Below the pieces are notes generated by a model, which saw nothing but the letters and a program-made list of their open reading frames with translations, searched no databases and was not told the origin of the DNA. Position numbers and translations under genes: made by a program. From the NCBI GenBank assembly GCA_963664225.1, contig OY760937.1:3872001-3936000 (forward strand): a stretch of DNA of 64,000 nucleotides, given 5' to 3'. The DNA comes from Verrucomicrobiia bacterium (GTDB taxonomy: Bacteria; Verrucomicrobiota; Verrucomicrobiia; Limisphaerales; UBA1319). Below, piece by piece: positions 14,366 to 18,598 of this stretch (the first letter of the stretch is position 1; each line of letters opens with the position of its first letter).

Positions 14366-15253
14366 ATGTTGTATGATCGACCATATATGCGGGACAACGG
14401 GCCGTCGCAAACTTGGTGGCACTCGGCCGTCATTTGCCTGATTATTGCCAACACCGCGATCTATCTCCTTCAGCAAATCAATGGGTTTTATCTCCACTGG
14501 CCGTTGACCCAGTATCTTGCGTTGAGCGTTGATGGAATGCGGCATGGTTATGTCTGGCAATTGCTGACATTCCAGTTCCTCCATGCCGGTGGCTGGCATC
14601 TGGTGTTTAACATGTTGGCTCTTTATTGGTTTGGACGTCCGGTAGAGGATTCTCTTGGCAATGGGCGGTTCCTTGAAGCCTATTTTGCGAGCGGTGTTAC
14701 CGGTGGGCTGTTTCAAACGCTGTTGGGCTTTGCTTTTCCTGTCTATTTCGGGCAGGCGGTTGTGGGTGCTTCTGCCGGGGTCTTTGGGTTGATCACCTTG
14801 TTTGCGCTCATGGATCCCAGCCGTGTCATACTTTTGTGGTTCGTTCTGCCGGTGCGGGCGCTGTATTTTGTGTACGGCGCGTTATTCCTCACGCTGTTTT
14901 TCATTCTCGTGCCGTCGAGTTCGGGAGTGGCGCACGCGGCGCATTTGGGCGGAATCCTCGCAGCGATGGGTTATCTGAAATGGTTTGTTCAATCCGACCG
15001 CCGTCTGTTTAGCTGGAAAAGGTTTACGGTGGTCAGGCAGGAACCTGAATTGGTTGAGGCGGCCACAGCCAAACGCAGTTTCTGGCGGCGTTCCGAAAGC
15101 ATCGCCTTGGACGACATGCCTGCGGAGGAATTCATCAGCCGGGAGGTGGACCCGATTCTTGATAAGATTTCATCCCATGGCATTCATAGTTTGACGGCGC
15201 GGGAACGCAAGATATTGGAGGCGGCTCGTAAAAAAATGGCACGCCGCAAATAG
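14366..15253 (+). CDS. rhomboid family intramembrane serine protease with C-terminal DUF6576-like domain
   Basis: 'WQLLTFQFLH', 'HLVFNM', 'GASAG', 'AHLGG'; C-terminal 'VDPILDKIS..G..SLT.RE'. Confidence 0.92.
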   Translation: MLYDRPYMRDNGPSQTWWHSAVICLIIANTAIYLLQQINGFYLHWPLTQYLALSVDGMRHGYVWQLLTFQFLHAGGWHLVFNMLALYWFGRPVEDSLGNGRFLEAYFASGVTGGLFQTLLGFAFPVYFGQAVVGASAGVFGLITLFALMDPSRVILLWFVLPVRALYFVYGALFLTLFFILVPSSSGVAHAAHLGGILAAMGYLKWFVQSDRRLFSWKRFTVVRQEPELVEAATAKRSFWRRSESIALDDMPAEEFISREVDPILDKISSHGIHSLTARERKILEAARKKMARRK

Positions 15254-15611
15254 CCAGTACAGACTTCAACGATTTTCCATATTTATCGAATGGCCCGTTC
15301 ACGCATGGCGTCCAATAGCCATCGTATGAACGGTGGGTTGGTCAATCGGTCCCATGGACCTTCAGAAAACGGATGCACTGGTGTCGCGCGGATTCTTCTG
15401 CGAAAGCGCCAGGACGCTTCCGTGTGTTCCGTTCTGCCAGAACGCCATAGCACGCATCCTTACGGCTGGCACACCCGGTTGACAGGCCAGATTTCCCGTT
15501 TTGCTCCCGCCACTCTGTCGTCCGGTCCAATCAGTTAAAACAGGCCTCATGCTTCCCCGGGGATTGAGGTAGGAATTCAAATTTCCCACATTTGGGCTCA
15601 AGAATGTCCAT

Positions 15612-15778
15612 TTAACCCGAAATCCGAAATACGAATGGTCAAGATGATGCAATGCTTTGAGGCAGCCATGATTTGCAATCGGCGAGGGTGTATTAAATCA
15701 ATACTCCACAGCCGGTTTCAAACCATGGATGGCCAAATGATTGCGTCAGATGGGCCGTTCCTATTTCGGATTTCGGGT
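15612..15778. repeat. inverted repeat built of 7-nt units (CCGAAAT / ATTTCGG); right arm interrupted by the intron
   Basis: AACCCGAAATCCGAAATA (15614-15631) is the reverse complement of TATTTCGGATTTCGGGT (15762-15778) plus the first T after the intron (17754). Confidence 0.8.
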
Positions 15779-17753
15779 GTGCGCCAGTGAAATTGGTAGC
15801 CTCGTGGGTGAAAGTCCCGCCGGTCGAATTAGACGGTTCACGACCGAAATGCAGCGTCCGGGACGAGGCCGTGAGGCCGAACCACAAGCGGGACGCTGAA
15901 AGAACTGTCGGGTCGTAACGAAAGTAAACCTCATCAAATGAGCTCCGAAACCGAAATAACCGGTAAGCCGAGCCGCTACCCGAACGGCGAAGGCAGAAAC
16001 GCGGCGTCATCAAATCGTCAAATGGGCGCTGTTGATTCCGGCGGAGTCAGCGAGGGCGACACGACAGGAAGGGAAACCAAGGTAAGCTGGGAGATCTCTG
16101 GAGGCGGGGCGATAAAGCCTCAACCGCCGGTGCAAGGAGGAACACCCTCCGAGGCCGCACGGGCAGCCAGAGAAGTCGGAGTCTTCCATAGTAGCGAAGA
16201 AGCTGGGGCGACCAAAACCCCGGCGGAGCCAAGGGAAGGCACTTGGATCGAAGCGAATCAAAACAGCGAGGGACAGGGAGATGGCCTTGAGGGAGTGGAA
16301 ACACTTTTTCAACGGATAACAACCCCGATAAAAGTTCAAAAGCTGCAGCGAGCGCTATATTGCAAAGCCAAGGCTGAGCCGAAGTATCGGTTTTACAGCC
16401 TCTACGGAGAACTGCTGCGGAAGGACGTGCTGGAAACGGCAATGGCCTCCGTGGCGCACAACAATGGCGCGGCTGGGATCGACGGGCAGACATGCGACGT
16501 CTATCTTGCCAGCGACGAAGCCTGGGACCAATGGCGGAACCAACTGCTGGAGGAGTTACGCACGAAGAAGTATCGGCCAAGCCCGGTGAAGCGTGTGTAT
16601 ATACCAAAAGGAGACGGGAAGCTGCGACCCCTGGGCATCCCGACAGTGAAAGACCGGGTGGTGCAGACAGCGGTGGTGATTGTATTGCTGCCGATTCTGG
16701 AAGCCGATAGTCATCCGAACAGTTACGCCTATCATCCCAAACGCAATGCCCACCAAGCAATGGAGGCGATCAAGAAGGCTACGCTGACAGGACGCGTCGA
16801 AGTTATAGACGCGGACTTAAGCGGGTATTTTGACAGCATTCCCCACAGGCGTTTGTTGCGCATAGTGGCCAAGCGGGTCAGCGATGGAACAATTCTCAAG
16901 CTGATCGCAGGATGGCTGCGCGCGCCCGTGAATGAACCGCAAAGCGACACAGGGAAAGGCGGGACAAAGGGGGGGCAAGGTCAGAATCGACGGGGGACTC
17001 CGCAAGGCGGGGTTGTATCGCCGATTTTAGCCAATGCATACCTCAACCAGTTGGATTGGGAAGTCAACGAACGCTGCGAACTCAAACCCGTGATGGTGAG
17101 ATACGCGGATGATTTCGTGATACTCGGACAGCCGGGGCAGGGACGGGAACTGATGGAACGACTGGAACGATGGCTGAAGCAACGCGAGTTAGTGCTCAAC
17201 GAGAAGAAGACCCGCTTGGTGGACCTCCGCCAGGATGGCATCAAATTCTTGGGATTCGCGCTAACAATGCGACAGGGGAAGGGGAAATGGAAATATCCGC
17301 ATGTGGAACCCCATCCCAAGAGCCAGAAGAAGTTTCGAGACGGGATTCGGGAGAAACTCAACCGAAGCACGCTATGGCGTGATATCGGAGAGGTGATTCC
17401 CGAGCTCAACAAGAAACTCAAAGGTTGGAAGGGTTACTTTCACTACGGGAACAGCACCAAGGTGATGGGCCAGATGAACGAATACGTCAGCAGCAAGTTA
17501 CAACGATGGTTGTGGCGCAAACACGGATGTAGTCGGGCGCAATGGTCCACATACCCCAAGGAGGATCTCTATGAGCGTTATGGTTTATACCAAATGCCGG
17601 AATATGCGGCATGGAAACGATGACGTCGAAGCGATGCAACGTATGATCCCCGGAGAGCCGGATGCGGGAAAACCGCCTGTCCGGTTCGATGAGGGGCGAA
17701 ATGCGACGGTCATTGGCCACGGCCATTCAATCCGTCCATTTCGCCTACTCTAC
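15779..17753 (+). mobile_element. group II intron (ribozyme plus RT/maturase ORF)
   Basis: 5' GTGCG at 15779; domain V GAGCCGGATGCGGGAAAACCGCCTGTCCGGTTC at 17655-17687; domain VI hairpin ending ...CTACTCTAC at 17753; EBS1 loop ACCCGAA (15978-15984) pairs with the 5' exon end TTCGGGT. Confidence 0.93.
16295..17623 (+). CDS. ltrA: group II intron reverse transcriptase/maturase lacking an HNH endonuclease
   Basis: 'RPLGIPTVKDRVVQ', 'DADLSGYFDSIPH', 'GTPQGGVVSPILAN', YADD, 'FLGF', X domain 'GWKGYF'; ends without an En domain. Start uncertain (in-frame GTG 16295). Confidence 0.92.
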   Translation: METLFQRITTPIKVQKLQRALYCKAKAEPKYRFYSLYGELLRKDVLETAMASVAHNNGAAGIDGQTCDVYLASDEAWDQWRNQLLEELRTKKYRPSPVKRVYIPKGDGKLRPLGIPTVKDRVVQTAVVIVLLPILEADSHPNSYAYHPKRNAHQAMEAIKKATLTGRVEVIDADLSGYFDSIPHRRLLRIVAKRVSDGTILKLIAGWLRAPVNEPQSDTGKGGTKGGQGQNRRGTPQGGVVSPILANAYLNQLDWEVNERCELKPVMVRYADDFVILGQPGQGRELMERLERWLKQRELVLNEKKTRLVDLRQDGIKFLGFALTMRQGKGKWKYPHVEPHPKSQKKFRDGIREKLNRSTLWRDIGEVIPELNKKLKGWKGYFHYGNSTKVMGQMNEYVSSKLQRWLWRKHGCSRAQWSTYPKEDLYERYGLYQMPEYAAWKR

Positions 17754-17890
17754 TTAAGGCATTGGCAGGAAAGAAATTCATCGCCATGCTCATGATGAAG
17801 CCCGGAGATTCTTGAGAATGCATTTTTTGAATGCGGAAACGAATTTCCAGTTGCGCACCAGCGTCAATTCTGGTGGAAATGAGTAGAACA

Positions 17891-18598
17891 ATGAACAATC
17901 AGATAATTAAGAATATTATGGTGTGGAACAAAATCATTGCCCCTTTGGCGCTGTCGGCCGTTATTGGCATGGCCGGAACCGCTTTTGCAGCCGATAAAGA
18001 AATGGCGCCGATCGACATCAAGCCCCCAATTCCGGCTTTCATGGGCACGCCGACGGATATCGCTATTAATGAACACATTGAGAAGCCTTCGGACAAGCCC
18101 CGCGCGCCCTTTATGGCCCCCAAAGGAGTCACCAATCTTGCCTTGAACAAGAAAGTCACCAGCAGCGACGCTTCGCCCATTTCCGGCTCTTTGGAACTGG
18201 TCACCGATGGCAACAAGGAATCGGCCGACGACACCTTCGTTGAATTGCATCGCAAGGTGCAGTGGGTGCAGATTGACCTCGAGAATCCCGCTGAAATCTA
18301 CGCCATTGTGATCTGGCACGCGCACAACACCCCCCAGCTTTACAAGAGCGTTGTGGTCCAAGTCTCGGATGACAAAGAGTTTACGAAAGATGTCAAAACC
18401 CTCTTCAACAACGATTACGAAAACGAAGCCGGTTTGGGTATTGGCACGGACAAGCAGTATTTCGAAAATTACGAAGGCAAACTCATTGACACCAAAGGTG
18501 TTAAGGGTCGCTATGTCCGCCTTTACAGCAAAGGCAGCAGCTTCAGCGCCCTGAATCGCTACACGGAAGTCGAAGTGTACGGTTTGGCCGCCAAGTAA
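17891..18598 (+). CDS. secreted discoidin (F5/8 type C)-like domain protein
   Basis: signal peptide; 'NLALNKKVTSS', 'TDGNKE', 'WVQIDLE', 'GRYVRLYS', 'EVEVYG'; start may be 17918. Confidence 0.8.
   Translation: MNNQIIKNIMVWNKIIAPLALSAVIGMAGTAFAADKEMAPIDIKPPIPAFMGTPTDIAINEHIEKPSDKPRAPFMAPKGVTNLALNKKVTSSDASPISGSLELVTDGNKESADDTFVELHRKVQWVQIDLENPAEIYAIVIWHAHNTPQLYKSVVVQVSDDKEFTKDVKTLFNNDYENEAGLGIGTDKQYFENYEGKLIDTKGVKGRYVRLYSKGSSFSALNRYTEVEVYGLAAK

Follow-up and report, generated by a model that had tools for sequence, protein, structure and literature searches.

The window, the whole 64,000-nucleotide stretch of DNA analysed here, contains a complete group II intron that encodes a reverse transcriptase/maturase and lies at one end of a short transposable element. 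The features of the locus are as follows.

15611..15615, plus strand: left target-site duplication TTTAA (5 bp) of the MITE
15616..15777, no strand assigned: MITE of 162 bp (CCCGAAATCCGAAATA...TATTTCGGATTTCGGG), an imperfectly palindromic element that lacks an ORF
15762..15769, plus strand: predicted IBS2, TATTTCGG, exon positions -17 to -10, with eight Watson-Crick pairs to 15951-15958
15772..15778, plus strand: IBS1, TTCGGGT, exon positions -7 to -1, the same in 19/19 copies
15779..17753, plus strand: complete group II intron of 1975 nt, with Rfam RF02005 and RF00029 matches and 19 exact genomic copies
15951..15958, plus strand: predicted EBS2, CCGAAAUA, within a 12-nt internal loop (15948-15959)
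15978..15984, plus strand: EBS1, ACCCGAA, in the terminal loop CUACCCGAA, from both structure calls and covariation
16049, plus strand: candidate EBS3 (tentative), a bulged A with the T at +1 as its would-be partner
16295..17623, plus strand: intron-encoded reverse transcriptase/maturase with a putative GTG start, the frame being open from the ATG at 15938
17754..17757, plus strand: remainder (TTAA) of the right-hand target-site duplication, with 17754 as IBS3

The first bases of the intron are GTGCG, from 15779, and the last are CTAC (17750-17753). The 5' exon closes with ...TATTTCGGATTTCGGGT at 15778 and the 3' exon opens with TTAAGGC at 17754, and splicing would yield a ligated junction of ...TTTCGGGT and TTAAGGC. 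Domains I to IV are matched by Rfam RF02005 at 15811-16056 (54.9 bits, threshold 49), and domains V and VI by RF00029 at 17653-17753 (49.3 bits, threshold 40). The features of mobile ORF-containing group II introns are present, namely 5' GUGYG, domains I-IV, a catalytic domain V/VI, 3' AY, and a domain IV protein with reverse-transcriptase and maturase (X) domains. RF02005 matches none of 14 control genomes, which therefore do not help to tie the Rfam model to an intron class. The coordinates given earlier for the intron, the EBS candidates, and the inverted repeat are all correct on re-examination. When contigs of four public runs are compared with window positions 15000-18500, none joins across the intron, which is uninformative either way on splicing or empty sites. 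Depth spikes occur over the first 260 nt of the intron and over domains V-VI in two runs, which are of undefined kind and not readable as RNA levels.

The intron protein has Pfam matches to RVT_1 (1.8e-34) and GIIM (1e-13) and no others, and it reaches 357 bits against TIGR04416 (cut-off 300). The open frame has 561 residues, and GIIM stops at residue 536. As in the endonuclease-less lineages (classes A, C, D, E, and F), no DNA-binding/endonuclease domain follows the maturase domain, which bears out the original prediction of an intron lacking this domain. The start codon, GTG at 16295 or one upstream of it, is uncertain. Class was compared by pairwise scores against fetched reference proteins labelled according to Tables S1 and S2 of PMC3552965, among which classes C and E are unrepresented. 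In these pairwise scores, which are not a tree, the protein shows 40.2% identity to Ni.ha.I1 of class F/g3, the g3 group being that of Toro and Martinez-Abarca 2013 (283 bits, 430 residues), 29.8% to the class D protein of pBpOF4-01 (152 bits), and 28.8% to E.c.I9 of class D (130 bits). Proteins of class D combine an RT domain, an X domain, and a C-terminal extension specific to the class. Class D membership, raised by the analogy with RmInt2, is rejected on pairwise identities of 29-30% to class D versus 40% to class F/g3. The protein thus appears nearer to class F than to class D, and its membership of class F/g3, judged by pairwise scores, is putative.

The genome contains 19 copies of the intron, each 1975 nt long and 100% identical. 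These identical copies argue for recent mobility, and the intron is presumably active at present. All 19 are preceded by ...TCGGA(T/G)TTCGGGT and followed by T(T/A)A, with T at +1 in every case, while the 3' flanks beyond T(T/A)A differ in every copy. The motif TCGGA[T/G]TTCGGGT occurs 51 times genome-wide, and the chance expectation for the 13-mer TCGGATTTCGGGT is 0.2 occurrences in the genome. The occupied sites comprise 13 MITE ends, 4 IS ends, and 2 other contexts with the same terminal bases. A dispersed, multicopy target outside genes had been proposed originally, and it is recovered here as 51 sites at intergenic transposon ends, with the other 18 intron copies at the same sequence as the one in the window. 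The target had also been described as a 7-nt tandem repeat family. This description does not hold, as (TTTCGGA)n arrays are absent and TTTCGGATTTCGGA has 0 occurrences in the genome. Instead, an IS1380-family IS and its MITE carry the target at the tip of their terminal inverted repeat, a tip that happens to consist of two 7-8-nt units.

Members of the IS1380 family have terminal inverted repeats beginning with CC and generate a 4-5-bp duplication. The IS in this genome, present as five 1534-bp copies with ends CCCGAACTCCGA... and matching 5-bp duplications in 5/5, fits both features. Its transposase scores 227 bits against NF033539 (IS1380 family; cut-off 180) and 2.3e-27 against Pfam DDE_Tnp_1_4. 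The smaller element has the characters of a MITE. It is 162 bp long and non-coding, has at least 19 full-length copies in the genome (94-100% identity), and shows matching duplications in 14/15 paired copies. Its ends agree with those of the IS at the first 6 bases and again at the next 5. Each MITE copy matches its own reverse complement at 69-75%. The inverted repeat noted earlier, with its left arm at 15614-15631, is real; 17 of its bases pair with 15762-15778 as the DNA stands, the 18th pair requires the first 3'-exon base, and an imperfect extension brings the repeat to 45 nt with 80% complementarity. A search of 40 relatives did not find the MITE.

Occupancy of the sites follows the predicted replication strand. 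In a census of the 51 sites, 18/23 are occupied on the permissive strand, the predicted lagging-strand template, versus 0/20 on the other (Fisher p = 9.9e-8), even though 19/20 of the opposite-strand sites have T at +1. Among clear-polarity elements with both ends intact and a single intron, the occupied end is the permissive one in 15/15, as counted by eye. Replication polarity was deduced from GC skew, the skew of the KOPS-like octamer GGGCAGGG (259:35), long-ORF orientation, and the position of dnaA at 2.99 Mb. Plain GC skew was rejected as a polarity map because it has no V shape, so the octamer skew, trained outside 1.2-3.8 Mb, was used in its place. Skew is near zero or patchy over 1.4-3.6 Mb, which implies very unequal replichores. 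The densest DnaA-box cluster, with 4 boxes in 600 bp at 2,892,524, was likewise rejected as an origin marker, since it is about 100 kb from dnaA and conflicts with the octamer skew. One intron copy, at 2,986,270 on the plus strand, is within a region of unoriented polarity some 2-4 kb from dnaA, and may be an exception to the strand rule.

The one-strand occupancy fits priming at replication forks. It could also stem from the way local transcription runs, from selection that disfavours one orientation, or from a single-source burst followed by inversions. Such origins would gain from the derivation of polarity from skews only, with a skew map that is patchy over 2.5-3.65 Mb, and from the mild co-orientation of long ORFs with the same regions. 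However, the long-ORF bias is weak, at about 55:45 per 200-kb bin compared with the intron's 18:0, the sites are ends of transposons in intergenic DNA, and a lagging-template bias has been shown experimentally for class D endonuclease-less introns (PMC4615759). They are considered unlikely, and replication-fork priming is the preferred reading.

The exon sequence at these sites pairs with the intron RNA. EBS1, ACCCGAA, lies within GCCG-CUACCCGAA-CGGC and complements exon positions 15772-15778 exactly. The 9-nt terminal loop that holds it is unpaired in two independent structure calls, the Rfam RF02005 alignment and RNAalifold on six related introns. Between EBS1 and IBS1, 35/35 cells are Watson-Crick across five introns (the window and four relatives), with 5/7 positions varying. 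The original proposal that this hairpin loop pairs with the last seven exon bases is therefore supported by both covariation and the unpaired loop.

Two EBS2 candidates had been named, TCCGAAA at 15944-15950 and CCGAAATA at 15951-15958, and both are found at those positions. The first is mostly in a stem, as RNAalifold pairs its TCCG (alignment columns 166-170) with columns 265-269, and this stem shows a compensatory change of U-A in the window versus C-G in 4/5 relatives. The second lies in the internal loop and is unpaired in both the Rfam alignment and RNAalifold, and is thus the likelier EBS2. Its 8-bp match to IBS2 is equalled by 0.45% of shuffled exons, and the segment is hypervariable between introns that are 82-87% identical. 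The match is significant in this genome only, since EBS2/IBS2 pairing in four relatives with known exons does not exceed chance. A 6-bp match with two G-U pairs in the relative L030 was rejected as EBS2 covariation, with 27% of shuffles equalling it. Position 16049 is tentatively regarded as EBS3. It is unpaired in the Rfam alignment, and it changes together with the first 3'-exon base, being A in the five introns that have T there and U in L032, where that base is A; this amounts to a single covariation event. Against this role, RNAalifold pairs it with column 162. Both EBS2 and EBS3 are thus presumed, rather than established, working contacts. Of the original prediction as a whole, EBS1, the multicopy target, and the lack of an endonuclease stand, while the tandem-repeat identity and the first EBS2 candidate do not; none of the three outcomes named beforehand as refuting it occurs, since the other copies share the target sequence, the target is multicopy, and EBS1 is in a loop.

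Class C (IIC) introns have a short IBS1 and no EBS2, recognise stem-loops, and are located behind terminators or attC sites. By comparison, the intron could recognise the shape of the DNA, with the MITE forming a hairpin in single-stranded DNA and the intron inserting behind it. The palindromic character of the MITE, with its 45-nt arms in the window, and the location of the intron exactly at the 3' foot of the element agree with this, and insertion at the 3' foot of an intergenic inverted repeat is a likeness to class C. In contrast, four copies are at ends of the 1.53-kb IS, where the arms are 1.5 kb apart, and two are in contexts without a MITE body, so that the opposite arm is not nearby. 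The 7-nt EBS1 covaries with the exon in related introns that have exons with no relation to the MITE, and the RNA matches RF02005 and has a 12-nt internal loop at the EBS2 position. Class C membership was rejected on account of this loop and the use of IS ends 1.5 kb apart. Recognition of DNA shape is very improbable, and base pairing with the exon is preferred.

The insertion point is one base into the 5-bp target-site duplication, and base 15778, the last of IBS1, is the first base of the right-hand duplication. This position and the use of a single replication strand were absent from the original prediction. When the intron is taken out, identical 5-bp flanks are found in 19/20 paired elements, and the duplication is perfect in 15/16 paired elements that bear an intron. 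This indicates that the intron came after the transposon and outside its repeat. The odd duplications TTTAT and TTGAG covary on both sides, which shows that the A/T beside CCC/GGG is part of the duplication; a 3-bp duplication with A...T in the repeat is rejected, because TTTAT and TTGAG covary at the fifth base. Passive spread of the 19 copies without 19 retrohomings, by composite transposition of MITE plus intron or by segmental duplication, would suit identical copies always found beside the same mobile element, but is scarcely credible with an intron outside the inverted repeat and inside a duplication that is perfect without it in 15/16, an intron 3' end unlike the repeat, a different 3' flank in each copy, and insertions at MITE ends of both kinds, at the two IS ends, and in two further contexts.

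It is highly probable that this endonuclease-less intron spreads by retrohoming, with the terminal inverted repeat of the IS1380-family element and its non-autonomous 162-bp MITE providing the site at its outward-facing tip. The excised intron RNA would read 16 target bases, with the EBS2 loop CCGAAAUA pairing with -17 to -10, the EBS1 loop ACCCGAA with -7 to -1, and the probable EBS3, A16049, with the T at +1. The transposon makes a 5-bp duplication (TTWAA) on landing, and positions -1 and +1 are its first two bases, so a complete homing site would exist only after transposition. The site is present at both ends of each element on opposite strands. Reverse splicing would target the strand exposed for a time in single-stranded form as lagging-strand template, and a nascent lagging strand would serve as primer. 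Without an endonuclease, entry and priming of this kind at forks would allow only one of the two ends to be used. A promoter scan found no sigma-70-like promoter in 15200-15900, and an outward promoter at the transposon end that drives the intron is thus unsupported.

RmInt2 of Sinorhizobium meliloti GR4, a class D intron that sits in the inverted repeats of ISRm17, is the closest known precedent, in strategy as well as in lagging-strand bias (PMC4615759). RmInt2 has an experimentally shown lagging-strand-template bias and tolerates a weak EBS2/IBS2 match (PMC4615759). The two introns are alike in lacking an endonuclease, in having identical copies all at IS inverted repeats, and in having two opposite-strand sites per element. 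They differ in that the present intron is of another lineage (29-30% protein identity with two references of class D), the IS family is IS1380, most targets are MITEs, and insertion is at the boundary of repeat and duplication, outside the element, rather than within the repeat. The copy number is 19, versus 7 for RmInt2. RmInt1 of S. meliloti, in ISRm2011-2, likewise lacks an endonuclease and multiplies by homing into a multicopy insertion sequence; it makes contacts through EBS1, EBS2, and EBS3 and is primed by the nascent lagging strand (PMC4615759). Its site is listed as 'ORF B, ISRm2011-2' (Table S1, PMC3552965). Unlike the intron studied here, RmInt1, of class D, is within the transposase gene, with one site and one orientation per IS. 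Ni.ha.I1 from Nitrobacter hamburgensis plasmid 1 (class F/g3; intron 1911 nt, protein 440 aa, RT-X) has an IS4 transposase as its host locus (Table S2, PMC3552965). At 40% by pairwise score and not by tree, it is the nearest class-labelled protein fetched, with intron and protein sizes similar to those here, but its target is inside a transposase gene and not at a repeat tip. Among the papers listed in a literature search of journals open without subscription, none appears to report IS1380 ends or MITEs as the homing target of a group II intron.

One mobile element living inside another in this way is already known, and the present intron is a clean case of it that leaves the current understanding of group II introns unchanged. 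With it, inverted-repeat targeting of the RmInt2 type takes in a further intron lineage as well as MITEs and IS1380-family elements. A broader and rather doubtful reading is that the intron is a second-order parasite, in which transposition creates the homing sites, the fork licenses one of them, copy orientation records fork direction, and the strategy is the first of its kind outside class D. If this were true, each new IS1380 or MITE insertion would create two fresh sites, and inverted-repeat targeting would have evolved independently in two intron lineages. With one strand near-saturated and none of the other occupied, copy orientation would record fork direction, and the 5.78-Mb chromosome would have very unequal replichores, with a terminus near 1.45 Mb and an origin within 2.2-3.0 Mb.

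The case also illustrates the retargeting of closely related introns through small EBS changes, and the intron could yield a compact, retargetable gene-targeting vector. Each transposon presents the same 16-base site on either strand, a few hundred bases apart, and the genome is thus an unusually clean natural experiment, with 18 occupied versus 0, on strand choice by endonuclease-less group II introns. The intron copies mark replication polarity where the skew of the genome is hard to read.

Positions 15779-17753 of the window (1975 nt) form a complete group II intron, which begins with GTGCG and ends with CTAC. Its ribozyme is recognized by two Rfam models:

15811-16056, domains I-IV (RF02005, 54.9 bits against a threshold of 49)
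17653-17753, domains V-VI (RF00029, 49.3 bits against a threshold of 40)

The open frame of the intron encodes only two domains, RVT_1 and GIIM (maturase); the domain search of this frame found no endonuclease domain. Against the NCBI model for group II RT/maturase proteins, the protein scores 357 bits (cut-off 300).

The genome is a single contig of 5.78 Mb and carries 19 copies of the intron, identical across the whole 1975 nt. None of them is inserted at an unrelated sequence: in all 19 the 5′ flank ends in ...TCGGA(T/G)TTCGGGT, and the 3′ flank starts with T(T/A)A, beyond which the flanks are mutually unrelated. The common 5′ exon reaches far past 15 bases and falls into few types. Mapping of every occurrence of the end motif defined two elements behind these sites. 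The smaller comprises 162 bp from CCC to GGG, with inverted ends CCCGAAATCCGAAATA... and at least 19 full copies of 94-100% identity. It is an imperfect palindrome without an ORF and is therefore a MITE. The larger has 1534 bp, five copies and related ends CCCGAACTCCGA..., and its sole long ORF is an IS1380-family transposase (NF033539, 227 bits, cut-off 180; Pfam DDE_Tnp_1_4). The occupied sites are 13 MITE ends and 4 IS ends, both kinds of end in each case, and 2 other contexts with the same final bases.

After in silico removal of the intron, identical 5-bp flanking duplications were seen in 19 of 20 paired elements, mostly TTTAA or TTAAA. The odd duplications TTTAT and TTGAG covary on both flanks, so the A/T beside CCC/GGG is part of the duplication and not of the repeat. 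The insertion point is one base inside the duplication (GGG T|TTAA). Of the 16 paired elements that bear an intron, 15 have a perfect duplication only once the intron is left out. This shows that the intron is later than the transposon, lies outside it, and could not have been carried by transposition. The original prediction named a 7-nt tandem repeat family as the target. Its core inference is right. The repeat is the inner build of the transposon repeat tip; the genome has no longer tandem arrays, with 0 occurrences of TTTCGGATTTCGGA, and "transposon end" is the more fitting name for the target.

Elements also land in the MITE itself, at its central TTTAA. Two MITE copies contain the IS1380-family element there (at 828,086-829,619 and 2,984,736-2,986,269 of the contig), in opposite orientations and each with its own intron. 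At 264,6xx-266,5xx a different element of ~1.9 kb, with ends CGCACTTTACCCC.../...GGGGTAAAGTGCG, occupies the central TTTAA of a third MITE copy.

The coordinates first given for the exon-binding segments all proved correct, and ACCCGAA (15978-15984) is, as was claimed, exactly complementary to the final seven bases of the 5′ exon. This EBS1 segment occupies a 9-nt terminal loop, closed by a GCCG/CGGC stem, that stays unpaired both in the Rfam consensus alignment and when six related introns are folded independently with RNAalifold. A scan with one genome per species gave five related loci with proteins 75-77% identical and a sixth at 67%. The five introns, from metagenome bins labelled as different phyla, are 82-87% identical across the 5′ part. 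The seven EBS1 loop bases vary in the four relatives whose 5′ exon is on the contig, and each fits its own exon perfectly; including the window, the EBS1/IBS1 pairs of five introns are Watson-Crick in 35 of 35 cells, with 5 of the 7 positions variable.

Two EBS2 candidates had been proposed, of which one is the likelier. TCCGAAA has its TCCG in a stem kept by a double change (U-A in the window, C-G in 4 of 5 relatives). CCGAAATA (15951-15958) is entirely inside a 12-nt internal loop, unpaired in the Rfam alignment and by RNAalifold, and all 8 of its bases can form Watson-Crick pairs with -17 to -10 of the exon, a match that 0.45% of shuffled exons reach. The EBS2 loop is as variable among the related introns as EBS1, and in none of the four relatives with a known 5′ exon is the EBS2/IBS2 match above chance. 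Position, variability and the match in its own genome point to CCGAAATA as the probable EBS2. The bulged A 16049 is U only in the single relative whose 3′ exon starts with A; this one covariation event makes it an EBS3 candidate, for which RNAalifold gives another pairing.

At the start of the intron protein, the site of the homologues' first Met reads CTT in the window, and this usual start is CTT, CTG or TTG in six related introns. ATG 16281 is out of frame, and a GTG is found at 16295, three codons 5′ of the CTT. In 6 of 6 related introns the open frame reaches back to a conserved ATG within domain I (15938 in the window), which adjoins the EBS2 loop (frame open over 15938-16297). Ribozyme domains I-III may encode an N-terminal extension, and GTG 16295 is a putative start. 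Contigs (not reads) of four public runs contain no joint spanning the intron. In two runs, X4 and X5, contig depth at 17574-17690 (domains V-VI) and 15766-16037 (the first 260 nt) exceeds that of the remaining intron 10-100-fold; stable RNA fragments could explain these peaks, contig depth being no proof of RNA.

The motif TCGGANTTCGGGT occurs 51 times in the genome. Each element presents it on both strands, and the site census found no element with two introns. Intron copies at 0.05-0.95 Mb and 2.99-5.61 Mb are in + orientation, and those at 1.66-2.19 Mb in - orientation. Replication polarity was judged from GC skew, independent of the coding strand; from a KOPS-like octamer skew trained outside 1.2-3.8 Mb (e.g. 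GGGCAGGG, 259:35); from long-ORF orientation; and from dnaA (2,990,068-2,991,396). These lines indicate + as the probable leading-strand sequence from ~3.6 Mb round to ~1.4 Mb, and - from ~1.5 to 2.6 Mb, with patchy signals between 2.6 and 3.6 Mb.

Occupancy of motif sites by inferred fork polarity
Intron sense with the fork (predicted lagging-strand template): 23 sites, 18 occupied
Opposite strand (19 with T at +1): 20 sites, 0 occupied
Patchy zone, 2.6-3.6 Mb: 8 sites, 1 occupied

The difference between 18/23 and 0/20 is significant (Fisher p = 9.9e-8). The one occupied site of the patchy zone is ~2-4 kb from dnaA; the octamer skew of its 25-kb bin is + (122:71). The intron would reverse-splice into the lagging-strand template, and the nascent lagging strand would prime its reverse transcription; given the inferred polarity, one-strand occupancy is the pattern expected from these two steps.

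The cumulative GC skew does not turn back (+ strand G 29.0%, C 27.0% over the whole genome). Positive skew runs from 3.6 Mb round to 1.4 Mb; between 1.4 and 3.6 Mb the skew is patchy or close to zero. The octamer skew has its peak at 1.48 Mb, with dnaA located at 2.99 Mb. This map points either to replichores of very unequal length or to numerous rearrangements within 2.5-3.65 Mb.

A second group II intron family is present as four near-identical copies (RF02005, 70.4 bits), in mixed orientations:

1,676,5xx, + strand
2,331,4xx, - strand
5,161,4xx, + strand
5,606,0xx, - strand

Its protein is 41.7% identical to that of the window's intron. The common sequence begins near ...TGGA|AAGCGCC, the 5′ end has no GUGYG, and the 5′ exons are T/C-rich and not transposon ends. 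The window also has two identical 60-nt contexts 1266 bp apart (~27,141 and 28,407; genome 3,899,141 and 3,900,407), an arrangement suggestive of a gene segment duplicated in tandem.

PMC4615759 reports experimental proof of lagging-template insertion with nascent-strand priming in RmInt1 and RmInt2, two class D introns without an endonuclease. According to the same source, all 7 RmInt2 copies of S. meliloti GR4 are in ISRm17 inverted repeats, which offer two sites per IS on opposite strands, so that one is surely on the lagging strand. The window's intron resembles RmInt2 in using transposon inverted-repeat ends, a strategy thus already published (PMC4615759). Unlike RmInt2 it is not class D, as its protein is 29-30% identical to the class D references E.c.I9 and pBpOF4-01. 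Identity is 31% to a g1 reference and 40% to Ni.ha.I1 (class F/g3; labels from Tables S1 and S2 of PMC3552965). Class F membership is a possible lead from pairwise identities. Among the papers listed in the literature search, none reports a group II intron inserted in MITEs or at the ends of IS1380 elements. A search of 40 relatives, among them a same-genus genome 93% complete, turned up no copy of the intron or of the MITE.

On a contig labelled as an Akkermansia bin (L031, a relative's locus, 1911-1980), a related intron follows ...ATCCGTGCAATCCGTGCAATCCGTGG, a tandem 9-nt repeat opposite inverted CACGGAT units ~25 nt upstream. Palindromic ends built of short repeats may be a habitual target of this intron group. 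The observation behind the original prediction is real, and the window's intron is a clear further example of the published strategy.
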